A stretch of 64,000 nucleotides of DNA from contig CAZERI010000003.1 in assembly GCA_964515545.1 (NCBI GenBank), positions 88,246-152,245 of the forward strand. The letters run 5' to 3'. The notes beneath the pieces are model-generated. The model had not been told where the DNA came from, did no database searches, and saw only the letters and a program-made list of their open reading frames with translations. Made by a program: the position numbers and the translations under genes. The stretch is from an uncultured Gammaproteobacteria bacterium (GTDB lineage Bacteria > Patescibacteriota > Microgenomatia > Levybacterales > UBA12049). Below are positions 8,188 to 56,818 of this stretch, in pieces (position 1 is the first letter of the stretch; every line of letters starts with the position of its first letter).

Positions 8188-10446
8188 ATGTTTTGGGCAG
8201 ATAAAGTAGCACAAGAAATTATTGATTCAGGAGAGTATCGCCCTTTTTGGGTTGATGATATGAAGACACCATCCGGACGTGTCCATGTGGGATCGATGTT
8301 AGGAGTTGTCTTTCATGATCTTGTTTATAAAGCATTAAAAGATAAGGGACAGGATGTGAATTATACTTATGTCTTTGAGAATCATGATCCAATGGACGAT
8401 ATCCCATCATATCTACCTCGAGAAAAATTCGAGAAGTACTTAGGAATGCCACTTTTTGCTATTCCTTCTCCTGTTGAAGGTTATAAAGATTTCCCGACGT
8501 ATTATGCTTCAGAATTCCAGGATGCATTCAATGCTGTTGGCTGTTACCCAACAATCCTGTGGACGAAAGATCTCTATACCAGCGGGAAAATGAATCATTT
8601 GATTAGGACTGTTCTGGATAATGCTTCTGAGATTCGTAAAATCTATCAAGAGATGTATAAAAAGGAAATGGCAGCTGACTGGTATCCATTTCAAGTGTAC
8701 TGTGAGTCCTGTGGTAAAGTTTCGACCACACGAGTTTATGCTTGGGATGGAGAATATGTCTCATATCGTTGTCCAGTAGATGCAACTAAGTGGACTAAGG
8801 GTTGTGGATTTGAAGGTAAGACTTCACCTTTTAGTGACGAAAAGGGAATTAAAGGAAAAATGCCGTGGAAAGTTGAGTGGCCGGCTAAATGGCAGGCTAT
8901 TGGAGTGACAATAGAAGGAGCGGGTAAAGATCATATGAGTAGTGGTGGCTCGCATGATTTAGCAAAGATCTTTTGTGAGAGAATTTTTCACTATCCGGTT
9001 CCTTATCCAGTTAGTTATGAATTCATGTTAATTGGCGGTAAAAAGATGTCATCGTCTAAAGGCAGAGGTTTTGCTGCCTCAGATATGCTAGAGATTTTAC
9101 CACCTGAGTTAGTCCGCTTCCTTATTGTTAAAATGAATCCTCGCCAGCAGACTAATTTTGACCCTGATGGAGATACTATCCCAAGATTATTTGATGAATA
9201 TCAAGATTACGCAGAGCATTTCTTCTCTGGTAAAAAAGATGATGAAGCACGTATCTTTGAGATGTCACAAATTGGAGAGCCTAAAAAACCTTTAGCAGTC
9301 CGATTTTCAACCCTTGCACAGTGGGTACAGATGCCTAATATGCAGCAGAAGATCAAAGATGAAGGGCTTTCAGAATGGGCAAAGTATGCTCGTATTTGGG
9401 TTGAGCGATTTGCACCGGATTCAGAGAAATTCAGTATTAGTGACACTCTTCCTGAAGCTGTTAAGAGCCTTTCAGGAGAGCAGAAAGAGTTTCTCGTACA
9501 GGTTTCAGAACTAGTAAAAGTCCATAGTGATCCTGAGGAGCTGCAAAAAGCAATTTATGAGAAAGCCAAAGAAATGAATATCCAGCCTAAAGATGCTTTT
9601 AGTGCTATCTATATTGCACTATTAGGTAAGAACCATGGGCCAAAAGCTGGTTGGCTTCTTCAATCGCTTGATAAAGATTTTGTTAAAAAAAGATTTACTC
9701 TTCTAGATGTTTATCAGGAGAGTGATTCCGATTCTTCTCATATTACCTTACTTGCTGACACATCGCTATTTAGTATTGCAAGCGGAATAAAAGAAAAAAT
9801 GCCATCCTTAAGCGTAGGGATTGCAGTTATTGAGGGAGTAACGATTAAAGATAAAGATAAAGAGTTAGAAGAGGAAAGGGAAGAGTTCTTAAAAAGTTTA
9901 CAAGGAATAACTACGGAACAAATTAATTCATTTCCTGAGGTTATAAGTTATCGAAACGTCTACAAAGATATGGGTATTGATTGGCATTCTCGTCGGCCTA
10001 GTCCTGAAGCGCTTTTAAGACGTGTTGCATTAGATAAGGGTTTGTACTCTGTTAATACCTGTGTTGATGCTTATAATATTATTGTCATGAAACACAGAGT
10101 CTCAGTCGGAGCATTTGATTTAGATAAAATTGTATTTCCTACAGAACTGCGATTTGCAAAAGCAGGTGAGAAGATACATCTTTTAGGAGATCAAGAAGAT
10201 ACTTCCTATAACGATAGAGAAGCAGCATATTTTGATCAGGTTGGAGGATATAATATTGATCTGAATTATCGTGATAGTGTGCGTACAGCTGTCACTGCTT
10301 CAACAAAAAATCTTTATATAAATGTAGAAGGAGTCTATGGTATTAAACCTGGATTAGTTGAAATGGTATTGAGAGAAACATGTGAAAAGATAGTAGCATA
10401 TTGTGGTGGCAGAATAGAAAAATTTGGACTAATTTTAGCTTCTTAA
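8188..10446 (+). CDS. lysS: class I lysine--tRNA ligase with C-terminal B3/4 (PheT-like) domain
   Basis: Archaeal-type LysRS-I motifs (TPSGRVHVGS for HIGH, KMSSSKG for KMSKS) in the first ~520 aa. A C-terminal ~230 aa domain contains the PheT B3/4-like GAFDLDKI motif. Confidence 0.85.
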   Translation: MFWADKVAQEIIDSGEYRPFWVDDMKTPSGRVHVGSMLGVVFHDLVYKALKDKGQDVNYTYVFENHDPMDDIPSYLPREKFEKYLGMPLFAIPSPVEGYKDFPTYYASEFQDAFNAVGCYPTILWTKDLYTSGKMNHLIRTVLDNASEIRKIYQEMYKKEMAADWYPFQVYCESCGKVSTTRVYAWDGEYVSYRCPVDATKWTKGCGFEGKTSPFSDEKGIKGKMPWKVEWPAKWQAIGVTIEGAGKDHMSSGGSHDLAKIFCERIFHYPVPYPVSYEFMLIGGKKMSSSKGRGFAASDMLEILPPELVRFLIVKMNPRQQTNFDPDGDTIPRLFDEYQDYAEHFFSGKKDDEARIFEMSQIGEPKKPLAVRFSTLAQWVQMPNMQQKIKDEGLSEWAKYARIWVERFAPDSEKFSISDTLPEAVKSLSGEQKEFLVQVSELVKVHSDPEELQKAIYEKAKEMNIQPKDAFSAIYIALLGKNHGPKAGWLLQSLDKDFVKKRFTLLDVYQESDSDSSHITLLADTSLFSIASGIKEKMPSLSVGIAVIEGVTIKDKDKELEEEREEFLKSLQGITTEQINSFPEVISYRNVYKDMGIDWHSRRPSPEALLRRVALDKGLYSVNTCVDAYNIIVMKHRVSVGAFDLDKIVFPTELRFAKAGEKIHLLGDQEDTSYNDREAAYFDQVGGYNIDLNYRDSVRTAVTASTKNLYINVEGVYGIKPGLVEMVLRETCEKIVAYCGGRIEKFGLILAS

Positions 10447-19353: not shown

Positions 19354-19382
19354 TTGACAAAAAATAGCACTCTTGTTATGAT
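19354..19382 (+). promoter_or_regulatory. sigma70 consensus promoter of the hrcA-grpE-dnaK operon (TTGACA-N17-TATGAT)
   Basis: TTGACA 19354-19359, exact 17-nt spacer, TATGAT 19377-19382. Confidence 0.6.
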
Positions 19383-19390
19383 AGTGCTAA
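19365..19390 (+). promoter_or_regulatory. CIRCE operator (HrcA binding site) overlapping the -10 element
   Basis: TAGCACTC-N9-TAGTGCTAA matches the CIRCE consensus TTAGCACTC-N9-GAGTGCTAA; sits directly upstream of hrcA. Confidence 0.6.
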
Positions 19391-20650: not shown

Positions 20651-22558
20651 ATGGCAAAAATAATAGGAATTGATTTAGGTACAACAAATTCATGTGTTGC
20701 TGTAATGGAAGGTGGATCACCCAAAGTGATTCACTCAGCTGAGGGGCGCAATGTTATCCCTTCTGTTGTTGATCCAAAGACTCATGTTGTTGGCGATGTA
20801 GCCAAGCGTCAGCTAGTTCTCAAACCAAAAGAAACAGTCTTTTCAGTAAAGCGTCTTATGGGTAAAAAGTTTCATGACGAATCTGTTCAACGCGACATGA
20901 AATGGCTTCCCTATACCGTTAAAGCTGGACGAGATGATATGGCTGTTGTTGAGGTTGATGGTAAGACTTATACTCCTCAAGAGATCTCAGCGATGATTCT
21001 CCAGAAAATTAAAGCTGATGCTGAGGCATATCTAGGTGACAAAGTAACAGAAGCAGTTATTACCGTTCCTGCATACTTTGATGATAGTCAGCGTCAAGCG
21101 ACAAAACAAGCTGGCGAAATTGCCGGACTGGATGTTAAACGTATTATCAATGAGCCCACAGCTGCAGCACTTGCTTATGGACTCGATAAGAAAAATGCCC
21201 ACACAATTGCAGTCTATGATCTAGGCGGTGGAACTTTCGATATCTCAATTTTGGAACTAGGTGAAGGTGTTTATGAAGTAAAGTCTACCAATGGAGACAC
21301 ACATCTTGGCGGAGATGACTTTGATCAGGTCATTATTGAGTACCTCGCTGATGAATTTAAGAAAGAAAATAATGTTGATCTACGTAAGGATCCACAAGCC
21401 CTCCAGCGTCTGAAAGAGTCAGCTGAAAAGGCTAAAATCGAACTCTCATCTTCTCAAGAGGCACACATCAATCAGCCATTCATTACGCAAGGAGCGAATG
21501 GTCCACTCCACCTCACAATGACGCTAACTCGGGCAAAATTAGAGCAGTTAGTAGATAGCCTTGTCCAAAAGACATTAAAACCAGTTGAGTTAGCTATTAA
21601 GGATGCAGGTATTAAAGCTCAAGATGTTGACGAAGTAGTACTTGTTGGCGGTATGACTCGCATGCCAAAGATTGTAGAGACAGTCTCTAAGTTCTTTGGA
21701 AAAGAGCCAAATAAATCAGTCAATCCTGATGAAGTAGTTGCTGTTGGTGCAGCTGTCCAAGGCGGAGTTCTCTCAGGCGATGTAAAAGACGTATTATTAC
21801 TTGATGTTACTCCTCTGACTCTTGGTATTGAGACGATGGGTGGAGTTTCAACTCCCCTAATTAACCGTAATACAACAATTCCTACTTCAAAGTCACAAGT
21901 GTTCTCTACAGCTGCAGATAACCAAACACAAGTGGAGATTAACGTTCTTCAAGGGGAGAGGCCAATGGCTGGAGATAATAAGTCCTTAGGAAGATTTGTC
22001 TTAGATGGTATTCCCCCCGCTCCTCGAGGGATGCCTCAAATCGAAGTAACGTTTGATATTGATGCAAGTGGTCTTCTTAATGTTAAAGCTAAAGATAAAG
22101 CCAGTGGTAAAGAGCAGAGTATTAAAATTACGGGAAGTACTGGACTCTCTAAGGAGGAAGTTGAAAAAATGACTAGAGAGGCAGAAGAGCATGCAAAAGA
22201 AGATGAAGAGAAAAAAGCCCAAGTTGAAGCACGTAATCAAGCTGACTCGCTTATCTTTACTGCAGAGAAATCTCTTAAGGATGCTGGAGATAAGGTAACA
22301 GGTGAAGTGAAAACAGAAGTTGAAGAAAAGATCAAAGCTTTGAAAGATGTCTTAGACTCAGGATCTAAAGAAGAAATTGAGAGCAAGACAAAAGAATTAT
22401 CAGATACATTAATGAAAATTGGCGAGGCGATGAATGCCTCTGCCAGCTCAGAGCAGGGTTCCCAAAATACAGCTTCTGATTCAAATGCTGATTCAGGAGG
22501 AGACAAAAAAGACTCGAATGAACCTGTTGAAGGGGAAGTAGTCGATGAGGGAAAGTAA
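20651..22558 (+). CDS. dnaK: molecular chaperone DnaK (Hsp70)
   Basis: [31 protein letters not shown] and the other Hsp70 signatures; 635 aa. Confidence 0.95.
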
Positions 22559-23054
22559 TTCAGAAAATTATAGTAATCTTCCGCTTCCTCTTGATGGAGC
22601 CACACCTAAAGCTACGCCAGCTCCTAAAACTCAATCCGTTTTACCAGCTTCAGAGAAAAGACTCCCTAGATTATCGCAAAAAATTAGCAGAACTCCTATC
22701 ATTCCTGGAGGTCTTTCACCTCAGGATACTTATAGATTAGACAATTTGGAGACTGAACTAACACGATATGATAATCTTGGTTCTGTCCCAACAGCCCCAA
22801 TTGCTGAAGAGATTGCTCAGTTATCTGCAAAGCAGACAGGTTATTCTTTAACAGAGCGGAAATTTTCTCCAGGAAGCGTTATGATGAATCTCGACCCCAT
22901 TGAGATAACAGAGGATGGACATCCTGTCTATCCATGGATTTCAGGCGAAAAAGGGAGAGAATTAAGAGAAGCAGGAGTATTAATGAAACAACCGGATTGG
23001 CATAAAAGAATGGCAAAACACAATAAACGGATCAGGACCAAAAATGCGCTTTAA
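22545..23054 (+). CDS. hypothetical protein
   Basis: 169-aa ORF overlapping the dnaK stop by 14 nt; Pro/Thr-rich N-terminus; no recognisable domain. Confidence 0.35.
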
Positions 23055-23082
23055 GTCATAAATAATAAGCATCATAGAAATT

Positions 23083-23108
23083 AAACCTCGACGAGTCGAG
23101 GTTTTTTT
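23083..23108 (+). terminator. rho-independent terminator (AACCTCGAC/GTCGAGGTT stem + T7)
   Basis: aacctcgac-ga-gtcgaggtt followed by ttttttt, 30 nt after the stop of the preceding ORF. Confidence 0.6.
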
Positions 23109-23964
23109 GTACACTGTATCTATGATTGAAAAAGGAGTATTTGGCAAAAGGCTTGATACCTATTCATATGGCGACTTACATGTTCATACCAATTACAGTG
23201 ATTCTGCTCTTGCGTGTGATGGGACTGTTGCTCCTGAAAGACTAGTTGATCTTGCTGAAGAGAATGGGCATAGCTTTATAGGAATTACTGATCATGATAC
23301 GATTGCTTCAAGTGTACGGGGTAAGGAATATGCATTAAAGCAGGGGTATAATGTAGAAGTAATAGTTGGTGCTGAGGTATCAACTACAGAAGGTCATATT
23401 CTAGCTCTTAATTTACAGGAGAATGTTCCGTTTTGGTCTGGTTCAGCGGACACAGTCAGGACAATTCATAGGCAAGGAGGACTTGCAATTCCTGCTCATC
23501 CCTTCTATTCACTTACATCATCTATCGGAGAAAAAGGACTTACTCGTGTTGCACGTGATGAAGATCCTGAGGTCTATTGGGATGGTATAGAAGTTTTTAA
23601 TGCTGGGGCTAATGATTTTCGTTTTTATGAATGGGTAAGACATCAGACAGATGGGAATAGGGCTGCAAGAAGATTTTATAAGAATCATGAATCTGAGGGC
23701 TTATATGGTGCAGCAGTAGGAGGATCAGATACCCATACCTCAAGAGTAGGAAGGGCAGTTACTATTATTCCACCGGAAATGGATATTTATACTGCTATAA
23801 AGACGAATAAGACCGGAGTAATTATTACAAACATGAAAGAGGACTACTCACCTAAAGTCATCTTTGAAATTGATAGGAAAAGTAAGGCTCTAGAGAGATC
23901 AAGATATCAGATCTCACCAGAACAGAGATATTTTCCTAACCCATGGCCTCAGCTGGCAGTTTGA
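23107..23964 (+). CDS. PHP-domain (polymerase/histidinol-phosphatase-like) metal-dependent phosphoesterase
   Basis: YGDLHVHTNYSD ... GITDHDT ... PAHPF motifs of the PHP family; true start may be the internal MIEKG. Confidence 0.65.
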   Translation: MYTVSMIEKGVFGKRLDTYSYGDLHVHTNYSDSALACDGTVAPERLVDLAEENGHSFIGITDHDTIASSVRGKEYALKQGYNVEVIVGAEVSTTEGHILALNLQENVPFWSGSADTVRTIHRQGGLAIPAHPFYSLTSSIGEKGLTRVARDEDPEVYWDGIEVFNAGANDFRFYEWVRHQTDGNRAARRFYKNHESEGLYGAAVGGSDTHTSRVGRAVTIIPPEMDIYTAIKTNKTGVIITNMKEDYSPKVIFEIDRKSKALERSRYQISPEQRYFPNPWPQLAV

Positions 23965-23984: not shown

Positions 23985-24869
23985 GTGACTATGGCTAGTC
24001 AGGATTATTACCATACATTGGGGGTTTCTAAATCTGCAACAGCGGAAGAAATAAAAAAATCATACCGTAAATTAGCTCTCCAGTATCATCCCGATCGTAA
24101 CAAAACTAAAGAGGGAGAAGAAAAGTTCAAGGAAATAACCCAAGCCTATGAAGTTCTTTCAGATCCTCAAAAGCGACAAACGTATGACCAGTATGGAGCT
24201 GCAGCTTTTGAGCAGGGAGCTGGAGGAAGCGGTCCATTTGGGGGAGGGTATGGCGGATTTAATCAGCAAGGTCCGTTTAGCTACTCCTATTCAACTAATG
24301 GACAAGGTTTTGATTTCGGAGGTTTTTCAGATCCTTTTGAGATTTTTGAACAATTTTTTGGTGGAGCATCTCCATTTGGAGGACGTTCCCGCCGGCCAGC
24401 ATATTCACTTTCCCTAACTTTTATGGAGGCTATCAAGGGAACTGAAAAAGAGGTAATGATTGATGGAAAAAAACAAAAGATTAAAGTTCCTGCTGGAGTT
24501 GATACGGGGACAAGGATGCGTTTTGATACTTATGATGTGATTTTTGATGTTGCGTCTGATAAGAGGTTCCAAAGAGAAGGTTCTGATGTTATAACTGAGG
24601 AAGAAATCACTTTCCCTCAAGCAGTAATTGGTGGCGATCTTAAAGTGGATACCGTGGAAGGTCCTGTGACTATTAAAATTCCAGCTGGTACACAGCCTGA
24701 GACGCTTATTAGGCTGCGGGGTAAAGGAATTCAGCGCTTACGAAGTTCTGGGAAAGGTGATCATTACGTAAAGATCAAAGTACATATTCCCAAAACAATT
24801 ACTCGCAAGCAAAAAGAAATTCTTGAACAATTTGATACCGAAAGCTCCTCAAAAAAAAAGTGGTTTTAG
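23985..24869 (+). CDS. dnaJ: DnaJ-class co-chaperone (J-domain, G/F-rich region, C-terminal substrate-binding domains; no Zn-finger)
   Basis: [34 protein letters not shown] (HPD J-domain), G/F-rich stretch, CbpA/DnaJ-type C-terminus; the CxxCxGxG repeats are absent. Confidence 0.8.
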
Positions 24870-25309
24870 CTACTTTTACCAAGCTTCCTTTTGATCTCTT
24901 GAAGCTCAGCTTCAATTTGTTGGTCTCTCTTAGGAGTTTCAAGGACCCCAAATTTATTTACGATACCCTCCATTTTCCCTAGAGCATTTTGTCTCCGCTT
25001 CTCATCTCTTTGAACTGCAGCATCACGTTCTTCCTCTCTTTGCCTGTTTAACAGTGCCATCCTTTGAGCTTCAGCTTGGCGCGCTTGCTGTCCAATTAGA
25101 GTAGAATCATCAGCTGGTTTGTTCCCCACATCTCCAATTTTTTTTACTGCATTATCGAGTGCAGCGTTGGATTTTGCTTCAGACCTTTCAGTAGCCTCCT
25201 CGGCCCTCCTCAGCACATCATCGACTGAGTCTCGGCCAAAGACTCCTCTTCTCCATCTTTGAAAAATTCCGCCTGGTTTCTGTGAGCCATCTACTCCTGA
25301 TTCTGGCAT
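24866..25309 (-). CDS. hypothetical basic coiled-coil protein
   Basis: 147 aa, R/E/Q-rich, predicted helical; stop codon overlaps the dnaJ stop convergently. Confidence 0.35.
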
Positions 25310-25439: not shown

Positions 25440-25844
25440 ATGAAAAAAATGCCTGCCCGCATTTATACACTGCTTAGATTCTTTTTTGCTGTTCTATTTA
25501 TAACGTATATTTTTACGGTTAGTTCTCCATTTGTCTATGCTGCCTCATCGCCTTGTCCGCCTGATCAGGCTATAACTGAGGTTGGTTGTCTGCCGACAGA
25601 TCCTATTGCGTTTGTTTCCAGTTTTTATGGGATTGGCTTGGGTCTTATTGGGGGAGTTGCTTTGATTTTTATCATAATTGGAGCCTACGTCATCCTTACC
25701 TCCCGAGGTAATCCAACTCAAGTAAATGTTGGGAAAAGTTATATTTTCTATGCGATTTTAGGGTTACTCCTTGCGATATTTGGATACATCTTTATCGAGG
25801 TCGTTCTCGTTGATATTTTGCATATACCTGGATTTAGCCACTAA
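25440..25844 (+). CDS. secreted two-TM small protein with TrbC/VirB2-pilin-like topology (tentative)
   Basis: Sec signal peptide (...SPFVYA|ASSP), Cys pair (PCPPDQ...GCLP), then two hydrophobic helices separated by a short polar loop (TSRGNPTQVNVGKS). Confidence 0.4.
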   Translation: MKKMPARIYTLLRFFFAVLFITYIFTVSSPFVYAASSPCPPDQAITEVGCLPTDPIAFVSSFYGIGLGLIGGVALIFIIIGAYVILTSRGNPTQVNVGKSYIFYAILGLLLAIFGYIFIEVVLVDILHIPGFSH

Positions 25845-25850
25845 TTTATA

Positions 25851-28800
25851 ATGAAAAAAAATGTATTATCACTATTTTCGATCCTTACTCTTTTACTTAT
25901 CTTTTTTTCTCCTAATGTTCATGCACAGGTAACTCCTACTCCAACCCCTGCTTCCATTCCTGTCACTCTTGGCACTCAGCCATTACCAGCAGAAGGAGCG
26001 TGGATTATAGATCCAGAAGTAACAACAGTGGGTAAAAATGCTTCACGTTCAGGCATGCTTTTAGACTGGACGCTAAGAGACTATAAGTGGTCCTCAGATA
26101 CGAGTTATACGAATAATCCGCTTACTCCATTTTGGCTGATCATCCAAAGAATCGTATATTCTCTTTTCCTTTTTGTCCTTCTCGTTACGGCATTTATTCT
26201 TATCGTAACACGAGGAAAGAGTCTATCAGCGAAAAGATTTCTGCCCAGATTTCTTTTGGTAGTTCTTCTAGTTACTTTCTCTTTTTCATTAGTGCAGTTT
26301 CTTTATCAGATTGTAGATATTTTCCAGGGATTTTTTCTTAAGAATCCTAAAGGGGAGATTATCTCTTCTCATGATCTTCTCTTCATTGGTTTTGATTACC
26401 GTACTTTCCAAGGATTAAGAGTCTTTGGAGAATCATACAATGAGTCTGCCTTTATTTCACTCCTTCTCGTAAAGTTAACTTCATTCACTTACTATGTCAT
26501 GGCTATACTTCTGATTTTCAGAAAAATTATTTTATGGTTCTTAATAATTATTTCTCCTGTGTTTCCGTTATTATTGCTGTTCTACCCGTTGAGGAATACG
26601 GCAAAAATTTGGATTGGGGAATTTTTCCGTTGGCTCTTGTATGCACCTCTCTTTGCTATTTTACTTTCTGGACTAGTGAGATTATGGAGTACAGGATTGC
26701 CTCTTTTCTTTAGCTCTGTCGGAGTAGGGAAAGAGAGTAGTTCAATTTATCCAACTGCCGTCAATATCCTTTTAGGTGGGCCAGGCCAGCATATAGGAAT
26801 CAATAATAGCGTTAATCTTCCGGATACGTTTGCTCTTTATTTGGTAGCTCTTCTTATGCTGTGGGCAGTTATTATTCTTCCTTTTATCCTTTTGCAGATA
26901 TTCTTGGATTATATGATGGCCTTTAATAACCGTGATAATCCATTTATGAAGCAAATTCTCACGATGCTTAATAACAGACCTATTATCCCTTCAGCCCCTT
27001 CCACACCGCCTCCTCCTGTGGGAGCTGGTTTAGCACGCAATTTACCTTTTGCAAAACGCTTCTCAATTCCTAAGACCACAGGGATTGCCCGTGAGGTTCC
27101 ACGAGGAGCTGCTCAGACTATAACTCGTCCTACATTCACCCAAAGAAATACTCAGACAGAGATATCACGTCTGACCAATCTCTCAATTCCTACTATGAGG
27201 GATATTGCGCGTCTTGAAACGACGAAACTTTCTCATGATGTGAGGACTCAGCAAGAGATAGAAAGAACGCGCCAAAACCTGATCAATATTGCAAATCCGG
27301 CTTCTGTAACATCTGTGACTGAGCGGGAGAGAGTAAAAATGATCCATGATCGCTTAGTAACTGAAGGACAAAAAGGCAGCCAGGTTGCAGCATCTATTTT
27401 AAATGCAGCAAATACGTATAATACATATTCTTCCTCAATTTCTTCATCCTCGCAGTCTTCAGTTGCACAAGTGACCCAGCAAATGATTGAAAATCTATCT
27501 CATCCGATGACAATTATCTCAAAAAGGGACCAACAGAAAATTATTGAGATCCGGCAGGAATTAATTAAAGCATCTGATGCGGGGAATCAATTTGCTAAAA
27601 ATATTCTTACCTCTGTCAATAACTATACAACCAATCAAGTTCAGAATCTTCAGAAGACTCTCAATCAGCTTGCTAGTCCAGAGAAGATAACTGACAATAA
27701 AGACAGAGAAGTATTTACTACACTTCGTGAAAAGATAACCTCTGCAAGCAAATCAGGTAATCCACTGGCTACTCTTCTTAGCAAGACTCTTGAGAGTAGT
27801 ACCTCAACAGAACAAGTCAAAAAGATTCAGCAGGAGTTGATCGAGGCTAAGGCGCAAGGTAATCCATTGGCTACAGAGCTTCTTAAGACAGTATCAGTTA
27901 CTGATAAGACCTCTGAAAAAGATATGGAGAAGTTATATGAGACTCTGAAGGAAGAAAGTAAATCAGGAAACCCACTAGCCACCCTTCTTCTTAAAACGAT
28001 CTCTTCACAGGAAAAATCACAAGCAGCTTCATTCTCGGCAACAGCAAAATTAAAGTCAGGTGTTCTCCCTCAAGTAAATCGGATTCAGCAGGTATCGTTG
28101 GATGACTATGAGGCTGTCAAGAAGATGTGGACAGATAATTATAAGAATTTGGAAGTGCCAAATAGTCAGCAGACACGAAAACAATGGATTGATCAGGATA
28201 TCTCAAGTATCCAAGAGGCTATTAGCCTCCTTTCCTCCCCCAATCCTCAGGATGTAGAGAAAGGCATGCAACAAGTCTCTGATATCTTGCCTTTCCTTTT
28301 AATTGGAGGCTTTTCTCAGACGGAGATCATTGCCTACTTGAAGGCTAAGATGGAGGCAGGAAAGAGTGTAGTAGAGAATGTTTCAGAAAAAGAAGAGGAG
28401 GAAGAAACACTACTTAATGCAGAACGTGCAGCAAAAGAGGCAACCGGTCACTTGGCAGCATCTATTGAGATAAAGAATGATGAAGTAAAAGGGAGTGCCC
28501 CATCGGTACCAATCCCAGCTGAAAAAGTCATCATTCAGTCTCAAGCCAATGCTCCAATACAGATCCAGACTAGTACATACTCCCCAGTACAGGAAGTGCA
28601 ACTAGATTCTCCTTCTTCAGTTGTCTCCCAGCTTCGTCTTCCTCTGCCAACACTCCGTGATATAGCAAGCTTTGAGACAAAGAAAGAAGGAAGAACTGTC
28701 CAGGATCTCAAAAAACTTTTTGTTCAATTATCACATCCAGAGGATATAGCTTCTCCATCTGAACAAAGAAATCTTTTAAAGATTAAGCAAACACTTCAGG

Positions 28801-29879
28801 ATCAAGCTCAGAAAGGTGATAGCACTGCACAAATGATAATTAATGCGTTGGGATTATCACAGACAATGGATACAGTTGGTGAAAAGCATGATTTCCTAAT
28901 GACTCTTAAAACAATTCTTGATCCATCCCTTGCATCAGAGGATGATCAATCATATTACAGACAAGTACGTGATGAGTTGGTTAAAGCACGTCAAGAATCA
29001 GATGTTATCGCAACTCAAGTAATGAAGCTTGTAGATAAGATATCCCAGACGGAGACTGAGTCTATTATAAAACTTCTGCAGAATCTCCATGACCCTGAAC
29101 ATCTCATAGCTAATGAGAAAGATAAAGAGACATTCATTTCTTTGAGAAATAATCTCAAGTCTCAGAAAGCAACTAGTCAGGTGGCATCAAGTATTCTTAC
29201 TGCTACTCAGAATACAATTACGTCTGTCAGTGCCAACAAAATTCGTGTGCAGCTGCTCGAAAAGGCTTCACAGAAAGATCCATTGGCAACAAGTATTATG
29301 AAAGAATATATCACGCTTCCTAAGGAAACGATTCAAGAGATAAACAATCTCTATCAGACGATTCAGAAATCATCGGATCCGTTCTCTAAGCTACTACTTA
29401 AACTTCTTACTCAGCAGACAAAAAGAGCAAGAGGAGTTAGAGTAGAGCGATTCCCACGAGAAAATCGTATCCAAAAAGTGAGTCTTGATGATTATGAGCA
29501 GGTGAAACAGATGCTCTATGAAATGTATTTGCATGGGACAGTTCCGCCGGGAAGGAATGGTCAAGAACAGGCACGTGTGGATTGGATTACAGAGGAAAAG
29601 CAGCAAGTAGAGGAAGTTATTAACCTCCTTTCATCAGATGATATGAATAATGTCCAGCTAGGAATGACTAAGGTAAATGATATCCTTCCCTTTCTTCTCT
29701 TGGGCGGATTTTCCCAAAATGAAGTTCTTCAGTATCTGAGAGCCAAACAAGAAGCTGCGGGTATGGCTCTACAGACGCTAGAAGGTACAGAGGAAAAGGT
29801 TTTTGTTGAAAAGAAGGAGAATTCAATAAATCAGCAAAAAATGGCTGTTGAGAGTAATGAATCAGTAGAAAAGGAGTAA
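25851..29879 (+). CDS. giant polytopic membrane protein: signal peptide + ~6-TM VirB6/TrbL-like domain + ~950-aa repetitive helical C-terminal region
   Basis: Cleavable signal (…NVHA|QVTPTPTP), 6 hydrophobic helices between aa ~100-360, and a Pro-rich linker. Beyond that, a twofold super-repeat combines an RDIA motif, 4-5 GNPLATxLLKT-type helical repeats and a ~100-aa VSLDDYE...ILPFLLxGGFSQ module. Confidence 0.5.
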   Translation: MKKNVLSLFSILTLLLIFFSPNVHAQVTPTPTPASIPVTLGTQPLPAEGAWIIDPEVTTVGKNASRSGMLLDWTLRDYKWSSDTSYTNNPLTPFWLIIQRIVYSLFLFVLLVTAFILIVTRGKSLSAKRFLPRFLLVVLLVTFSFSLVQFLYQIVDIFQGFFLKNPKGEIISSHDLLFIGFDYRTFQGLRVFGESYNESAFISLLLVKLTSFTYYVMAILLIFRKIILWFLIIISPVFPLLLLFYPLRNTAKIWIGEFFRWLLYAPLFAILLSGLVRLWSTGLPLFFSSVGVGKESSSIYPTAVNILLGGPGQHIGINNSVNLPDTFALYLVALLMLWAVIILPFILLQIFLDYMMAFNNRDNPFMKQILTMLNNRPIIPSAPSTPPPPVGAGLARNLPFAKRFSIPKTTGIAREVPRGAAQTITRPTFTQRNTQTEISRLTNLSIPTMRDIARLETTKLSHDVRTQQEIERTRQNLINIANPASVTSVTERERVKMIHDRLVTEGQKGSQVAASILNAANTYNTYSSSISSSSQSSVAQVTQQMIENLSHPMTIISKRDQQKIIEIRQELIKASDAGNQFAKNILTSVNNYTTNQVQNLQKTLNQLASPEKITDNKDREVFTTLREKITSASKSGNPLATLLSKTLESSTSTEQVKKIQQELIEAKAQGNPLATELLKTVSVTDKTSEKDMEKLYETLKEESKSGNPLATLLLKTISSQEKSQAASFSATAKLKSGVLPQVNRIQQVSLDDYEAVKKMWTDNYKNLEVPNSQQTRKQWIDQDISSIQEAISLLSSPNPQDVEKGMQQVSDILPFLLIGGFSQTEIIAYLKAKMEAGKSVVENVSEKEEEEETLLNAERAAKEATGHLAASIEIKNDEVKGSAPSVPIPAEKVIIQSQANAPIQIQTSTYSPVQEVQLDSPSSVVSQLRLPLPTLRDIASFETKKEGRTVQDLKKLFVQLSHPEDIASPSEQRNLLKIKQTLQDQAQKGDSTAQMIINALGLSQTMDTVGEKHDFLMTLKTILDPSLASEDDQSYYRQVRDELVKARQESDVIATQVMKLVDKISQTETESIIKLLQNLHDPEHLIANEKDKETFISLRNNLKSQKATSQVASSILTATQNTITSVSANKIRVQLLEKASQKDPLATSIMKEYITLPKETIQEINNLYQTIQKSSDPFSKLLLKLLTQQTKRARGVRVERFPRENRIQKVSLDDYEQVKQMLYEMYLHGTVPPGRNGQEQARVDWITEEKQQVEEVINLLSSDDMNNVQLGMTKVNDILPFLLLGGFSQNEVLQYLRAKQEAAGMALQTLEGTEEKVFVEKKENSINQQKMAVESNESVEKE
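28066..28365 (+). repeat. internal protein-module repeat copy A (RIQQVSLDDYEAVKKM ... ILPFLLIGGFSQTEIIAYLKAKMEAG)
   Basis: ~100-aa module duplicated within the 1342-aa ORF; the nucleotide copies are diverged (ancient duplication). Confidence 0.55.
29448..29765 (+). repeat. internal protein-module repeat copy B (RIQKVSLDDYEQVKQM ... ILPFLLLGGFSQNEVLQYLRAKQEAA)
   Basis: Second copy of the module; same order of conserved residues (VSLDDYE, W, LLSS, GM..V.DILPFLL.GGFSQ.E...YL.AK). Confidence 0.55.
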
Positions 29880-32738: not shown

Positions 32739-33068
32739 ATGTCTGCCTATTTTTTCTTGCCTTTTTATTTTCTTTCGTTTTGGTTTGGTGAAGCTCCTGT
32801 TAGCATACTTCGCCATTTTCTTGAGATTAATAAGGCTTTCTTTCGCTTCTTCTCCATCTCTCTTCTCTTAAGAACTTTTTTTCAGCCTATTAAAAATGAA
32901 TATCGTAAAGGACTGGTTGGTTTTTCTATTGGGATGGGAATGGTAGTAAAGACGATGGTTATTCTCGCTTCTCTTATTCTCTTTATTCCAATTTTGCTCC
33001 TAGAGATATTACTTTTAGGAGGATTTTTAATCTTTCCTTTAGTAACGCTAGCGTTATTGATTTGGTGA
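32739..33068 (+). CDS. small integral membrane protein (3 TM), translationally coupled to the downstream ATPase
   Basis: 109 aa, hydrophobic; stop 4 nt before the start of the next gene. Confidence 0.4.
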   Translation: MSAYFFLPFYFLSFWFGEAPVSILRHFLEINKAFFRFFSISLLLRTFFQPIKNEYRKGLVGFSIGMGMVVKTMVILASLILFIPILLLEILLLGGFLIFPLVTLALLIW

Positions 33069-33072
33069 TACT

Positions 33073-35475
33073 ATGGACCATCATTTTATAGCATTTTACC
33101 GTCTCTATCATAATATCCTGATTCGATTCCTTAGGATTTCTATCCCAGTTGTATTAACACTGGCAGTTATTATGGGTAATTTCTCTCATTCTTCGCCGAC
33201 TTTCTTTCTTGCTTTGTTCAATATTTTTGTAATGATTGAGATATTTTATCGGTATAAGATCAGTTTGGTCCAGTCAAAAAAGATAGTGCCGGAGGTAGAA
33301 GAGAAAGATGCACTCCATGTGATGAGTCTCCAGGCTCTCTCATCGATGCATGCATCTTCTCTGGCATATGATGTAGTTAAAGACTTACTGAGGTATCCGC
33401 AAGTCCACTTTTTTCTGGAAAGGGCAGCAATCTCTCCTCAAGAATTAGTTAAGAATGATTTAGGGAATGCACTTCTTCCTCAAGAAGCATATTCTTTAGT
33501 AAGGTCAATTAATGGAAAAAGAATCATTACAGTTGATATTCTGGCCTCATATTTATTACTGAGTGAAGAAAAAACGCAACTACTTTTTAACAAGAAATTG
33601 AAACCTAAAGATATATTGGCAATATTACAATGGACTCGGCTTATTTATCCACAAGAAGAAGAACATCAACGTTTCCATATTGAAGGAAACGGCGGGGGCC
33701 TTGGAGAAAGTTTAGTAATTGGTTGGACTCCTGAGACTAAAAACTACACACGAAATTTTACTAATAGTCTAACGGAGCATGATGTTTCTATTGTGGGTAG
33801 AGAAAAAGAATATGAATTAATTAAGGAGGTTCTTTCAAAGCAGGAAAATAATAATCTGGTGTTAGTAGGGGAAGCGGGAGTGGGGAAAGAACAGCTAATC
33901 CAGAAACTGGCACTCGACAGCTATAGCGGGAGGATACATAGAGGGCTTGCTTCCAAGACAATTTTGGAGCTGTTAGTCGGAACATTACTTGCGGGCGCAA
34001 CAACTCAAGGTGATTTGCAGGCCCGTATTGAAGCAATTATTGCAGAGGTGTCTCATGCTCAGAATATCATTCTTTATATCCCTGATTTCCAAAATATGAT
34101 TGGGGGCGGAACTTTTTCACTAGACTTATCGGGGGCATTAGCCCCTTACCTTAAAAATGGTACGATCCCGATTATTGCCAGTATGACTGAAGGAGCGTAT
34201 AAAACCTATCTAGAGAGAAGCTCCCTTAATCAGTTGTTCTCTCCGATAAAAATAGCTGAGGTTAATGAGGATCTGGCTCAGCTTATGGTAATGGAAAAAA
34301 CACAAGAGATAGAGAAAAAGTCTTCTGTTATTGTTACATACTCTGCATTAGTCGAATCAGTCAGATATGCCGACCGCTATAGCCAAAGTATGGTGTTGCC
34401 AGGGAGTGCGATTGCTCTCCTATCGGACGCGGTAAGCGGAGTACTATTGACGGATGCTCCTATCTATCCTCAGTCAAAAAGGCGGTTATTAGAAAGAGAT
34501 GCTGTGGTTAAGCTTGTTGAACAAAAGACTAAAATTGCTCTATCTGAACCGACTCAAGAAGAAAAAAGCCTCCTTCTTCATTTAGAAGATGTTCTGCATA
34601 ATCATATTATTGGCCAAGATGCAGCTGTACATGTTCTAAGTGAGGCAATGAGAAGGTTACGAGTTGGGATAGAAGATAGAAAACGGCCTATCTCATTTCT
34701 CTTTTTAGGACCCACGGGAGTTGGTAAAACAGAAACAGCAAAGACACTGGCTAATACTTATTTTGGAGGAGAAGCCACTATGATCAGGTTTGATATGAGT
34801 GAATACGCTGATGAAGAAGGACAACGAAGATTACTTGGGTCTCTTCCAGGACAAGGCGAGGAGAGAGGAGAACTTACTGAGCAGATACGAGACCATCCAT
34901 ACTCACTGATCCTTCTTGATGAATTCGAAAAGGCACATACCTCGATTCGTGACCTATTTTTACAGATACTAGAGGATGGAAGATTAACAGATAACAAAGG
35001 GAAAACGATTTCATTTATTAATACCATTATTATTGCTACCTCTAATGCTGGATCTGAATTTATCCATGATGCAATCACGAAAGGAAGAATAGTTGATAAG
35101 CAATTTGAAAATGATTTATCAGAATATCTCCAGTCTCATAATATTTTTAAACCTGAACTTCTCAACAGATTTGATGCTGTAGTGACATTTAAACCTCTTA
35201 CTGAGACAGAGGTTCATACTATTGCTGGGCATCTACTCAGTGAACTCAAGAAAAAGCTTCTAGAGAAAGATATTACTCTTGAAATTGATGATGCTGTTTT
35301 AACTAAAGTGGGCAAGGAAGCATACAACAAAGAAATGGGAGCTCGTCCCATCAGGAGATATATCCAAGATACTATAGAAGATCTACTGTCACAAAAACTG
35401 CTTACATCATCGGTCACAAGAGGTAATCACGTGAGGCTCGCTGTAGATGCAAATAATTCTTTTGTTATTGTATAG
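33073..35475 (+). CDS. membrane-anchored Hsp100/Clp-like AAA+ ATPase with degenerate D1 Walker A
   Basis: Two N-terminal TM helices; Clp_N-like repeats; D1 GEAGVGKEQ (Walker-A Ser/Thr replaced by Glu); D2 GPTGVGKTE intact; sensor-2 GARPIRR. Confidence 0.7.
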   Translation: MDHHFIAFYRLYHNILIRFLRISIPVVLTLAVIMGNFSHSSPTFFLALFNIFVMIEIFYRYKISLVQSKKIVPEVEEKDALHVMSLQALSSMHASSLAYDVVKDLLRYPQVHFFLERAAISPQELVKNDLGNALLPQEAYSLVRSINGKRIITVDILASYLLLSEEKTQLLFNKKLKPKDILAILQWTRLIYPQEEEHQRFHIEGNGGGLGESLVIGWTPETKNYTRNFTNSLTEHDVSIVGREKEYELIKEVLSKQENNNLVLVGEAGVGKEQLIQKLALDSYSGRIHRGLASKTILELLVGTLLAGATTQGDLQARIEAIIAEVSHAQNIILYIPDFQNMIGGGTFSLDLSGALAPYLKNGTIPIIASMTEGAYKTYLERSSLNQLFSPIKIAEVNEDLAQLMVMEKTQEIEKKSSVIVTYSALVESVRYADRYSQSMVLPGSAIALLSDAVSGVLLTDAPIYPQSKRRLLERDAVVKLVEQKTKIALSEPTQEEKSLLLHLEDVLHNHIIGQDAAVHVLSEAMRRLRVGIEDRKRPISFLFLGPTGVGKTETAKTLANTYFGGEATMIRFDMSEYADEEGQRRLLGSLPGQGEERGELTEQIRDHPYSLILLDEFEKAHTSIRDLFLQILEDGRLTDNKGKTISFINTIIIATSNAGSEFIHDAITKGRIVDKQFENDLSEYLQSHNIFKPELLNRFDAVVTFKPLTETEVHTIAGHLLSELKKKLLEKDITLEIDDAVLTKVGKEAYNKEMGARPIRRYIQDTIEDLLSQKLLTSSVTRGNHVRLAVDANNSFVIV

Positions 35476-53715: not shown

Positions 53716-54468
53716 TTATTGATCATTGGGCTGTAGTGTCGTATCAGGTTTAACGATACGAGCTCGTATAATGAGTCTCTTCCAGGTAGTTCCAGGAGGA
53801 GTACAAGTTACTAGTATAAGATAATTGTCGTCATAATTCTGGGCAAAAAATGACGTATCAAGAGGACTAGTAATCGTAATATTATAAATCTTATAAGTAT
53901 AAGTAAGGTTATCTACTTTAATATCTATCTTATCTCCTACTTCAAGGGTATGTGCGTAAGCAAATACGGTGTCATAATCTCCCTGTTTAAAGAGTTGAGG
54001 AAGTGTTGAGTGTCCAAAGATAACTGCAGTTCCCCTGCTTGGAGGAACAGCAGTACCCCCATACTGAACGAGATGATGAGAAAGATCAGTATCAATTGTT
54101 GATACATCCAAATCCATTTGGTGGATTTTAGGAATACTCATCGTGTAATGTGTCACTGCAACATCAGTATGAGCTTGTTGAATACTAGGATACCAGTTCT
54201 TGGCATCTGTGTAATCAACCCCTGTGAGTGTATCGGCAGTAGATTGGATCAAGTCACGAAAAGAATTACTACTTAGCATGGTTGCTTCAGGAATTGGAGC
54301 TGCTAATTTTTGTGAAGCAAAAACAGGCTGAAGATAGAGCTGGAAGGAAAGAAGAGGAAATGAAAAGTACCCGACCATTATGAGCCCAAAAATGCAAAGC
54401 AACATCCCAAAGAATCGGGCATAACGCCGAAATAATGCTGGATTTTTCTTAGTATAAAGTTTAGTCAT
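53716..54468 (-). CDS. sortase-family transpeptidase (membrane-anchored)
   Basis: N-terminal TM; catalytic His (VIFGHS), LILVTCTPPGT (TLxTC Cys motif), conserved Arg (RLIIRAR). Confidence 0.7.
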   Translation of the reverse strand: MTKLYTKKNPALFRRYARFFGMLLCIFGLIMVGYFSFPLLSFQLYLQPVFASQKLAAPIPEATMLSSNSFRDLIQSTADTLTGVDYTDAKNWYPSIQQAHTDVAVTHYTMSIPKIHQMDLDVSTIDTDLSHHLVQYGGTAVPPSRGTAVIFGHSTLPQLFKQGDYDTVFAYAHTLEVGDKIDIKVDNLTYTYKIYNITITSPLDTSFFAQNYDDNYLILVTCTPPGTTWKRLIIRARIVKPDTTLQPNDQ

Positions 54469-56818
54469 TTGTTTGGAGTACTATTTTAATATTGTGACTG
54501 ATACGTGGCAGTAATTTAGGGAGAAGCGGAAGAGAAGGTGAGAGTTGAATTTCAGCTCCACTAACCTGAGGAAGAGTTTGAAGGTAGGCTGTCGCATCAG
54601 TAAAAGATTTTCCGGTTATATTTTGAACCACATTTTCCTCATCAATTTTTGGTAGGAGTCCTGCATCCATAACAAGACTTGCAGTAGCTTCACCATTTTT
54701 CCCTGGTTTAATATCCTGGAGTTCTGTTATGATGCCTTTGTTAGAAAGAGCAAGATCTTTATCATATTTCCCCTGGATCGCTGCCTGAGCAACTTTGCCA
54801 AGGTCTTCGGTGTTATATGAGAGAGTTGTAAACGTTATCGTTCCTTGGAGGGTTACTTTGCTCGCCTCATCACCTACATCTTTATCGAAGGATTTCTTGC
54901 TAAGCACAGTGTCAGTAAAAATAGGTAGGATCTGTTGACCACCGCCTGCCTTATCTTTAAGAGCATCTTTTGCTTTTCCTTCTAGTTGTTTTGTCAGATC
55001 TTCTATGAGAGTATCGGTATCTTTTTTAGCAACAACTGTTACTGTCTTTTTGGATCCTCCAGAGAAAGCACTGTCATTTTTACCTGCTAACGTATTCGAG
55101 CTTACCCCATCAATACTGAATTTGGTTCCTGATGGGAGATTGTACTCATTTCCTATATTTTTAGCTATAACACCAACAGAAGCAGTTCCAGGTTTGGATG
55201 AGGTGGCATCTCCTGATGCTGATGCTACAGCAATATCACCTGTAGTGACAAAATCCAAATTATTACTGGAAGAGATCGTGGTACCACTGGAGATAGATTT
55301 TTTGTTATCACTATTGTTATAAAACGTAATAGTACCTTTTGCTTTTTCTCCCACATCCTTCTTGCCAGTTGTTGTGGTCGAGACAGTGCCATCAACTGAT
55401 GTTGCTATCTCTTTAGCAGTGAGAATTTTTTGTGATAGGTCATTATCGGAGTCAGTACGTAGAGTAACAGTTGTTGAATCATCAATCTTTTTAGGTTCCA
55501 TATGAAGCGTTACAGTAGCTTTAACAGCAAAGAGATAATAAATACCAAGCACCAACAGTAACACTACAATAACAGGCAGAATAATAAACCGTCTTGATAC
55601 TCCTCCTATTCCCCCTAAGGGAAGAGATGGAAGTGAAAGCTTACCCATAAGGGCTGGAATTAAACTAAAAAATCTCATAAAGCCTTCCTTCTCCGGATCA
55701 TTCTCATCTTCAGGAGAAGGATTCTCCTCAGAAGGTCTTACGTGTGAAGTCATATTCATATGCTGACGTGTGGCTTCGGAGGGATTCATTTCTGTAGCCT
55801 TTTCTCCTCTAGCGTGGGAGGAATCTGCATGAGAAGCAGATTTCGTAATATCCTCGTCCATAACAAAACCAAAGTTATCTCCAGCAATGGGAGCAGAGTC
55901 CTCTTCGTTTTCGGCACTGAGAGATTTTTCCTTCTCATCAAGGGCGTCCTTTTCCTCCTCAGGCAATTCTTCTTCTCCATCAGTCTCTTTCTTTTTGGTT
56001 CTATGGTTTGGCGAAGTTTCATTGGAGTCGATAGTAAGTACCTTAATGTCGCCGAGAGCTTCCTGGACTGAAAAGCCCATTTGTTCTCCTGCTCCATAGA
56101 TCATAGCTTTCCCATCAAACCCTGCAGGGAGAAGCGAAATTTGTGGTACATGTAAAAATGGAATACTTTTACTCCAATGGTGAGCCAGAAATTCCTGCGC
56201 TAGAGTTTCATCATGATTTCCATCCAAAAGGATCATCCTTGAAGGAAGAACGTCTGTGGTGAAATGGTGGAGCAGCCGGTCTACAGTCTGAGGAATGGAG
56301 CCTTCAATATGGCCAGTGTGTGTCTCAATGATTTTACTCGCCCTAAAAAGGGTAAGTGTAATATTCCTTTTATCGACCTCAGCAAGAATTGCAGATAGAG
56401 GTGCACCTTCTTCTTCTGATAACAGATGAGATATTGCTTCACTAATGACCATGAATCCGATTGGCTGAAGTGAGAGGCTTTCACAAACTTTTTTCAGCTG
56501 TACTAAGTGCTCTTTTTTAATCTTCTTTTCTTCCACCCAACTTTCTTTAACTCCAAAGACTGTTTTTTCAGTTTCAATATTTGGAGGTAGCATCTCCTCA
56601 GCTCTGCTAATGGCTTTGTCTAATGTTTCAAGTAATTCTTCAAAAGGAATTTGTTCCAAATGAGTTGGGAAGGGACTCTCATGGCTGCCGATTAGTTTGA
56701 GGCGTCCTTCAATTTCCTGGAGAACAACTGCAATAGTTTTTTCATCGCGAAGCAAAAGCGCTAAATAATAATTCGAAGGCGCTTTTTTGGCAAAAAGTGA
56801 GGGTACGGGCAGTTTCAT
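54461..56818 (-). CDS. hypothetical: N-terminal actin-like (FtsA/PilM-like) domain, acidic disordered region, one TM, ~350-aa S/T-rich extracellular domain
   Basis: N-terminal ~230 aa aligns loosely with FtsA/PilM phosphate-1/2 regions (YYLALLLRDEKTIAVVLQ...GRLKLIG; ...NITLTLFRASKII). A D/E-rich segment and a TM (ILPVIVVLLLVLGIYYLFAV) follow. The 8-nt overlap with the sortase gene suggests translational coupling. Confidence 0.35.
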   Translation of the reverse strand: MKLPVPSLFAKKAPSNYYLALLLRDEKTIAVVLQEIEGRLKLIGSHESPFPTHLEQIPFEELLETLDKAISRAEEMLPPNIETEKTVFGVKESWVEEKKIKKEHLVQLKKVCESLSLQPIGFMVISEAISHLLSEEEGAPLSAILAEVDKRNITLTLFRASKIIETHTGHIEGSIPQTVDRLLHHFTTDVLPSRMILLDGNHDETLAQEFLAHHWSKSIPFLHVPQISLLPAGFDGKAMIYGAGEQMGFSVQEALGDIKVLTIDSNETSPNHRTKKKETDGEEELPEEEKDALDEKEKSLSAENEEDSAPIAGDNFGFVMDEDITKSASHADSSHARGEKATEMNPSEATRQHMNMTSHVRPSEENPSPEDENDPEKEGFMRFFSLIPALMGKLSLPSLPLGGIGGVSRRFIILPVIVVLLLVLGIYYLFAVKATVTLHMEPKKIDDSTTVTLRTDSDNDLSQKILTAKEIATSVDGTVSTTTTGKKDVGEKAKGTITFYNNSDNKKSISSGTTISSSNNLDFVTTGDIAVASASGDATSSKPGTASVGVIAKNIGNEYNLPSGTKFSIDGVSSNTLAGKNDSAFSGGSKKTVTVVAKKDTDTLIEDLTKQLEGKAKDALKDKAGGGQQILPIFTDTVLSKKSFDKDVGDEASKVTLQGTITFTTLSYNTEDLGKVAQAAIQGKYDKDLALSNKGIITELQDIKPGKNGEATASLVMDAGLLPKIDEENVVQNITGKSFTDATAYLQTLPQVSGAEIQLSPSLPLLPKLLPRISHNIKIVLQTND

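Follow-up and report, generated by a model that had tools for sequence, protein, structure and literature searches.

The TraG protein of the F plasmid and the VirB6 paralogues of Rickettsiales are examples of extended VirB6 proteins. Members of this class of type IV secretion system (T4SS) proteins carry a large hydrophilic central or C-proximal domain beside the transmembrane (TM) domain, and the function of these extensions is not known (Alvarez-Martinez and Christie 2009, reviewed in PMC12857230). In Patescibacteria, T4SSs with VirB2-like pilins have been described in which VirB4 is encoded with TrsD, PrgI and VirB6 nearby, often near dnaA (Wang et al. 2023; Quinonero-Coronel et al. 2025, PMC12102498). 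Among the 3,035 genomes of this survey, VirB6 was described as 'scarce' in Microgenomatia, which was put down to divergence (PMC12102498). Here, we analyze a 64,000-nucleotide stretch of contig CAZERI010000003.1 (assembly GCA_964515545.1; hereafter the window) from a groundwater bacterium with a small genome, titled uncultured Gammaproteobacteria and placed in the Levybacterales by its GTDB lineage. It contains two co-directional genes 6 nt apart, encoding a small pilin-like protein of 134 amino acids (aa) and a VirB6-like membrane protein of 1342 aa. The pair had been pointed out in an earlier note made from the DNA sequence alone, and the extents and spacing of its open reading frames (ORFs) are as given there. 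We propose, with moderate confidence, that Levybacteria (Microgenomates, Patescibacteria) carry this gene pair on the chromosome as a vertically inherited membrane module derived from a T4SS, in which a VirB2-type pilin is paired with an extended VirB6 bearing a cytoplasmic scaffold.

The small protein begins with a signal sequence (aa 1-34, with VYA at its end), followed by Cys39 and Cys50, each at least 90% conserved in 73 orthologues. Two helices then stand out by their hydrophobicity, one at about aa 56-91 and the other at about aa 99-132, with TSRGNPTQVNVGKS in between. This is the layout expected of a T4SS pilin, namely a signal peptide and then two hydrophobic helices with a short polar or basic loop. 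The orthologues, taken as the gene immediately upstream of the VirB6-like gene in related genomes, match the T4SS_pilin family PF18895 in 70 of 73 cases at E<=0.01 (best 2.5e-8), and rival families gather at most eight members each. The window protein itself matches PF18895 at E=0.0016 and 18.9 bits, under the curated cut-off of 26.6, and the NCBIfam model NF045849 (pilin-like protein of Mycoplasma integrative and conjugative elements) at E=2.5e-5, also below the cut-off of that model. A profile of the pilins has no detectable similarity to TrwL, the VirB2 protein of R388. A type IV (PilA) pilin was rejected, as the 134-aa sequence holds no G/FTLIE class III prepilin motif. From the PF18895 matches and the absent prepilin motif, the small protein is, judged by its sequence, a VirB2-type pilin-like protein of the kind common in Patescibacteria (PMC12102498). 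The earlier note had arrived at the same identity from the signal peptide, the Cys pair and the two helices, all of which are borne out.

The second protein has six hydrophobic segments between residues 91 and 359, and thus at least the five hydrophobic helices of a polytopic VirB6/TrbL protein. A comparison with Pfam TrbL/VirB6 (PF04610), which the earlier note had suggested, does not rule the family out: the window protein narrowly misses the cut-off (24.3 bits against 25.9, residues 112-279), and six of 19 homologous N-terminal domains match TrbL at E<=0.01, with no other family recurring. Precomputed PF04610 matches are also found on three database homologues. Furthermore, a profile of the N-terminal domains aligns to the conserved core of R388 TrwI, the VirB6 protein of that plasmid, at E=0.024 in a single comparison, and TrwI chains ranked first, short of significance, in a Foldseek search with the N-terminal model. 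The same profile retrieved nothing useful from PDB sequences, and a tblastn search for the TM domain in 72,556 plasmids gave no match. On the TrbL matches, the alignment to TrwI and the Foldseek ranking, we conclude that the N-terminal domain has a VirB6 fold and is a remote VirB6/TrbL homologue, in keeping with the earlier proposal of a VirB6/TrbL-like start.

A hydrophilic tail of about 950 aa follows, which places the protein within the definition of an extended VirB6 (PMC12857230). The tail is a twofold duplication, residues 444-864 aligning with 930-1335 at 30% identity over 431 aa (self-alignment, E=3e-54). It contains PT[ML]RDIA motifs, GNPLAT-type repeats, of which five are clear in the first half while those of the second half are degenerate, and both VSLDDYE...ILPFLLxGGFSQ modules, all of them elements that the earlier note had described. 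The DNA copies of the module, at 28066-28365 and 29448-29765, are about 57% identical, and no tandem DNA repeat underlies them. In an AlphaFold2 (AF2) model, the super-repeat is all-alpha, with helical hairpins and then a bundle of about five helices (predicted local distance difference test, pLDDT, 76.5). As the earlier note had anticipated, the tail cannot be assigned to a described family: no consistent Pfam family and no specific solved fold was found for it, and its profile matched only designed coiled coils among PDB sequences. A DUF3144 match (26.4 bits) was discarded as spurious, since only 2 of 23 homologous units match. The tail profile finds only 379 clusters among 1.84 billion representatives, the module is restricted to VirB6-like ORFs in the neighbourhoods searched, and the tail family is, as far as these profile searches indicate, lineage-restricted.

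The topology was read from the distribution of charges and cysteines. Averaged over 19 homologues, the segments read as cytoplasmic are positively charged (loop 120-133, +4.3; RK224-225, +2; loop 248-260, +2; linker after the TM segments, aa 357-440, +4.9), and the alternating segments carry negative net charges (N-terminal segment, -1.9; loop 158-200, -1.5; loop 282-325, -0.6). Conserved Cys pairs are confined to the N-terminal segment and loop 158-200 in the same homologues, and the tails are nearly Cys-free. We infer an N-out topology with five TM helices, a Pro-rich re-entrant hairpin (226-247) and the C-terminus inside. The repeat tail is then most likely cytoplasmic, because the charges follow the positive-inside rule, the Cys pairs lie only in other loops, and the same repeats occur on an Hsp100 ATPase that has no TM segment.

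How does this pair compare with the described systems? Like the extended VirB6 proteins, the large protein joins a VirB6/TrbL-fold polytopic domain of at least five hydrophobic helices to a large hydrophilic C-proximal domain. Unlike them, it has a tail that finds no match in Pfam or the PDB, consists of super-repeats of about 430 aa in variable copy number, is predicted to be cytoplasmic and has its repeats in common with Hsp100; nor is it encoded with VirB4 or other T4SS genes. TcpH and PrgH of Gram-positive conjugation combine a polytopic N-terminal domain with a large C-terminal region in a monoderm, as here, but these proteins are plasmid-borne and encoded with the VirB4-like TcpF, and a profile comparison by hhalign detected no similarity to TcpH of pCW3. 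In R388, TrwI and TrwL belong to the solved T4SS stalk and inner-membrane complex (PDB 7o3v, 8rtd); TrwI has 342 aa, 13% identity and no tail, and R388 carries the full VirB1-11/VirD4/relaxase set, unlike the window. With the Patescibacteria T4SSs (PMC12102498) the pair has in common the PF18895 pilin family, a chromosomal location, the lack of a relaxase and the occurrence in monoderm bacteria of the epibiont type; it differs from them in having no VirB4 within 64 kb and in its position between dnaJ and clpB. The Levybacteria VirB6 homologue apparently escaped the hidden Markov models used for Microgenomatia in that survey. The extended VirB6 class (PMC12857230) and the VirB2-like pilin family of Patescibacteria are thus kinds already known, and what is new is the tail family with its modular expansion, its predicted cytoplasmic site, the repeat shared with Hsp100, and the position in a chaperone cluster without VirB4.

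Homologues of the VirB6-like protein number more than 549 at lengths of 1100-2150 aa, and every one of them is annotated as hypothetical. When one genome was scanned for each species, 140 relatives emerged, of which the 80 best loci were compared; these are from Levybacteria/Levyibacteriota or from metagenome-assembled genomes (MAGs) titled otherwise, many with the generic 'uncultured Gammaproteobacteria'. Of 76 complete orthologues compared at species level, 49 carry a single module (678-1106 aa), two modules are seen in 21, and three in six. As most orthologues have a single module, the window protein is an expanded form, and its giant size is a lineage-specific state. A check of synteny, which the earlier note had also suggested, revealed what that note had overlooked: the pair sits inside a conserved chaperone gene cluster, with the consensus order hrcA-grpE-dnaK-(dnaJ)-pilin-VirB6-like-clpB-(peptidase)-(dnaJ)-orf109-membrane-anchored Hsp100-(VWA)-nusA. 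The pilin gene lies at most 600 nt upstream of the VirB6-like gene in 72 of 76 species-level loci with upstream sequence, and clpB follows in 65 of the 67 loci with room for it. dnaJ is upstream in 49 loci; in another 17 it stands downstream of clpB, so that the pilin, VirB6-like and clpB genes come to lie between dnaK and dnaJ.

Conserved synteny was rejected as proof of a functional chaperone link, because the unrelated genes metG, tatD, nusA and infB are equally syntenic in these loci, the gene has moved in two species, and distant relatives lack the adjacency. In the two species (L041, L051), the VirB6-like gene has been relocated beside alaS, with two S8 subtilases directly after it and neither pilin nor clpB. 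Unrelated contexts with no ClpB, DnaK or VirB4 surround four distant relatives of up to 3266 aa, whose N-terminal domains are 34-39% identical. For the longest of these (L087:8364-18164), which is 36% identical in that domain, two PF18895 genes lie on the opposite strand, 4-5 kb upstream, and no ClpB, DnaK or VirB4 was found within reach in its neighbourhood.

A Pfam scan of every window ORF of at least 150 aa returned housekeeping genes, among others tsaD, murB, greA, lysS, metG, hrcA, grpE, dnaK, dnaJ, two Hsp100 genes, nusA, infB, rpsO, pnp, RNase J, ftsK, alaS and rpoB. No VirB4, VirD4, relaxase or integrase was among them, and the one ATPase of FtsK type has the alpha and gamma domains of a full FtsK. 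In the related loci, VirB4 was likewise absent from the recurrent unexplained ORF clusters and the Pfam-scanned contexts, which cover part of the ORFs in the 80 loci. The 64-kb window therefore does not hold a type IV secretion locus in the usual sense, with VirB4 encoded beside pilin and VirB6. The marks of a conjugative element (relaxase, coupling protein, integrase, patchy distribution) are also missing. With housekeeping genes all around and a gene order found again in 80 species, this is no conjugative or mobile element; the earlier note had seen no obvious conjugative element in the window.

The gene directly downstream encodes a soluble Hsp100 ATPase of 916 aa. It has a short disordered linker in place of the M-domain coiled coil, no ClpP-binding loop and a P/S/T-rich disordered C-terminal tail of about 100 aa. 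Against the ClpB equivalog it scores 894 bits (cut-off 1232), with the match split around model positions 430-507, and it stays under every NCBIfam equivalog cut-off. Given these scores and the missing M-domain and ClpP loop, it is not a canonical DnaK-coupled ClpB. Its orthologues in 14 loci (12 species) carry two to five C-terminal helical repeats of the tail type, each roughly 85 aa, with full-length E-values of 3e-14 to 4e-30; these orthologues are 1125-1513 aa long (L002:14331-18320 and 13 others, including L025, L032, L040, L046, L048, L061, L062, L064, L068, L073 and L083). Besides the VirB6-like and Hsp100 genes, no further ORF with the repeat was found in the 20-kb neighbourhoods. No TM segment is present in 67 of 68 orthologues of the soluble Hsp100. 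The repeat extension occurs in 12 of 25 loci with at least two modules versus 2 of 41 with one (Fisher p=6e-5, phylogeny ignored). Homologue searches with the ClpB repeat extension and with the N-terminus of the membrane-anchored Hsp100 each gave one match.

Further downstream, the 800-aa Hsp100-like ATPase has N-terminal TM helices (aa 14-59), which are present in 39 of 39 orthologues; we know of no described membrane-anchored Hsp100. In the window protein, the Walker B motif of the first nucleotide-binding domain reads 'DF', not 'DE'. The gene for a 109-aa membrane protein always lies directly upstream, with a gap of 4 nt here and a median of 11 nt in orthologues. Large membrane-anchored peptidases (S8, M4/M28 and others) are encoded between clpB and orf109 in more than 40 loci, none of them in the window; the types seen in this slot are an S8 subtilase with SdrD_B, a possible M64-like peptidase and an M4+M28 fusion (e.g. 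L043:15218-17941, L012:16992-19700, L082:15566-18829).

Among the survey entries compared here, VirB4 is recorded in 20 of 44 Levybacteria assemblies and in most of the Magasanikbacteria and Kaiserbacteria listed with them (PMC12102498, Table S1). Three assemblies of this table are shared with our loci: L029 is VirB4-positive, and L031 and L033 are negative yet carry the pair. Two Levybacteria scored positive have a VirB4 locus with TrsD and two pilins of its own, and no VirB6 was detected in them (PMC12102498, Table S3). The pair may thus supply VirB6 in trans where VirB4 exists, and it seems to persist where VirB4 is absent, although MAG incompleteness weakens such absences.

Our proposal is the following. 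The first gene would provide a Sec-exported VirB2-type pilin. By analogy with R388 TrwI, the VirB6-fold domain would act as a platform in the cytoplasmic membrane that collects pilin subunits and passes a filament or substrate; the 2022 work of Macé and colleagues reportedly identified VirB6 as the base of pilus assembly in R388. The C-terminal 950 aa may form an all-helical cytoplasmic scaffold of about 430-aa super-repeats, each made of a PT[ML]RDIA motif, helical hairpins and a 120-aa module, in one to at least three copies across complete species-level orthologues. Soluble partners probably bind to this scaffold where the platform has its base. No adjacent VirB4 would be required, and candidates for the energising ATPase are the neighbouring Hsp100 proteins or, in genomes that possess it, a VirB4 encoded at another site. 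The homology and fold of the two proteins, the duplication, the synteny, the lack of conjugation genes and the repeat in common with Hsp100 are shown by the present analysis, and the topology, the platform function and the scaffold role are proposed on that basis. Several points weigh against this proposal. Both window proteins alone score below the curated Pfam cut-offs, the AF2 model of the N-terminal domain is of moderate confidence (pLDDT 64.5), and its Foldseek ranking with TrwI on top was not significant. The topology is based on charge bias and fusions, not on experiment, and the Hsp100 of the window itself has no tail-type repeats. To our knowledge, no T4SS builds a VirB2 pilus without VirB4.

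This last point leads to a doubtful but quite possible alternative, that the pair is the missing VirB2/VirB6 part of a split canonical T4SS, of the Patescibacteria MPF-FATA-like (mating-pair formation, FATA) type, in which the pair would work only together with a VirB4/TrsD locus near dnaA and the chaperone synteny would be frozen, without functional meaning. Indeed, all VirB2 and VirB6 functions known to us need VirB4, metG, tatD, nusA and infB are just as syntenic, and the adjacency to ClpB and DnaK is gone in distant relatives. Furthermore, the two VirB4-bearing Levybacteria list pilins, TrsD and VirB4 but no VirB6, in a group where VirB6 is 'scarce' (PMC12102498). Against a split system speaks that fewer than half of the Levybacteria assemblies have VirB4, that two VirB4-negative assemblies carry the pair, and that the VirB4 locus has its own two pilin genes, each of these weakened by MAG incompleteness. 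At the other extreme, Hsp100-type AAA+ unfoldases could replace VirB4 in a T4SS-derived pilus or export machine of Levybacteria, which we regard as improbable. The VirB6-like tail would then tether the soluble Hsp100 that lacks the M-domain, with the membrane-anchored Hsp100 and its 109-aa partner beside it, and together they would pull pilin out of the membrane or pass unfolded proteins through the platform. The shared repeats, the patchy VirB4, the co-occurrence of tail expansion with the Hsp100 extension and the conserved cluster are all compatible with this; the repeat-free Hsp100 of the window and the confinement of the adjacency to Levybacteria count against it.

About as hard to credit, in our view, is a proteostasis hub, in which the VirB6 fold now serves as a co-opted anchor in the membrane and the cytoplasmic tail recruits Hsp100 and DnaK for quality control of membrane and exported proteins, including the adjacent membrane-anchored proteases, with no role in filament formation or secretion left. 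The pair does lie inside the HrcA/CIRCE (controlling inverted repeat of chaperone expression) chaperone cluster, between dnaK and dnaJ together with clpB in 17 species, and both the peptidases in the slot before orf109 and the repeats in common with Hsp100 would fit. A conserved and tightly coupled pilin gene is hard to explain in such a hub, the adjacency is lost in distant relatives, and the window has a gene on the opposite strand between dnaJ and the pilin gene, and its only CIRCE at hrcA. The earlier note had instead placed the tail outside the membrane, as part of a surface filament or host-attachment structure with the pilin, and this we consider very unlikely. Formally, a cleaved signal peptide with six hydrophobic segments behind it would leave the C-terminus outside, some extended VirB6 proteins such as F TraG have periplasmic C-domains, and the variation in repeat number resembles that of surface proteins. 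However, with six TM helices the positive-inside rule would be broken, since 248-260 and 357-440, the most basic segments, would come to lie outside; the tail is nearly free of cysteine where the predicted outer loops have conserved pairs; the same repeats are found on a soluble cytoplasmic AAA+ ATPase in 12 species; and the C-terminus of Agrobacterium VirB6 is cytoplasmic, as in the topology proposed here. As the tail is very probably cytoplasmic, it would not serve as a host-attachment surface, and a surface filament is conceivable only for the pilin. We therefore retain the T4SS-derived membrane module as the preferred explanation for the pair.

The chaperone context is marked at the head of the hrcA-grpE-dnaK cluster, where a promoter close to consensus, TTGACA-17-TATGAT, shares sequence with a CIRCE-like inverted repeat, ATAGCACTC-N9-TAGTGCTAA; the TTG start of hrcA called at 19354 is probably too far upstream. 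Between dnaK and dnaJ (22545-23964, +) lie a 169-aa ORF without a family match and a PHP-domain protein. The ORF between dnaJ and the pilin gene (24866-25309, opposite strand) encodes 147 charged, low-complexity residues. Elsewhere in the window, a lysyl-tRNA synthetase of class I carries at its C-terminus a fused B3_4 domain, which is known from the beta subunit of PheRS (8188-10446, +), and a 785-aa protein with weak Baseplate_J-like and GlxA beta-barrel matches adjoins a sortase (53716-56818, -), a pair that is kept in L041. Coordinates of the features of the locus are collected in the table.

Table. Positions in the window of the pilin/VirB6-like pair, its protein segments and associated features.
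Feature	Position	Strand	Basis or remark
VirB2-type T4SS pilin-like gene	25440..25844	+	ORF, 134 aa
Extended VirB6-like gene, whole ORF	25851..29879	+	1342 aa
Sec signal peptide of VirB6-like protein (aa 1-25, ...VHA/Q)	25851..25925	+	sequence, hydrophobicity; kept in 19 homologues
VirB6/TrbL-fold polytopic membrane domain (aa about 90-360)	26118..26930	+	proposed N-out, five TM + re-entrant hairpin, C-in
Basic Pro-rich linker (aa about 375-440), PIIPSAPSTPPPPVG, conserved GLARNLPFxKRFxxP motif	26973..27170	+	pLDDT below 50
Tail super-repeat 1 (aa 444-864), in order PTMRDIA motif, repeated helical hairpins (GNPLAT turns), module	27180..28442	+	
Module 1 (aa 741-870): VNRIQQVSLDDYE...ILPFLLIGGFSQTEIIAYLKAK, bundle of about five helices	28071..28460	+	most conserved part of tail
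Tail super-repeat 2 (aa 930-1335), diverged copy of super-repeat 1	28638..29855	+	self-alignment
Module 2 (aa 1201-1320)	29451..29810	+	self-alignment, DNA alignment
Soluble Hsp100 ATPase, ClpB-like, 916 aa	29923..32673	+	Pfam; candidate partner by inference
109-aa membrane protein, then 800-aa membrane-anchored Hsp100-like ATPase	32739..35475	+	conserved downstream pair, context
Sigma-70-like promoter overlapped by CIRCE (HrcA operator), head of hrcA-grpE-dnaK cluster	19354..19390	+	marks chaperone context

Patescibacteria are thought to live on other cells, and in one tested cultivated case T4SS genes and VirB2-like pilins are essential for this. For the VirB6 missing in Microgenomatia, the family described here, known from at least 140 species representatives, is a strong candidate, and it indicates that a VirB6 component can be encoded far from VirB4 and probably also in genomes that have no VirB4. 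With one to at least three super-repeats, and with Hsp100 fusions of the same repeat, it offers a natural series for studying the function of extended VirB6 extensions. If the link to Hsp100 is functional, it would represent a new way of powering a T4SS-type membrane platform.

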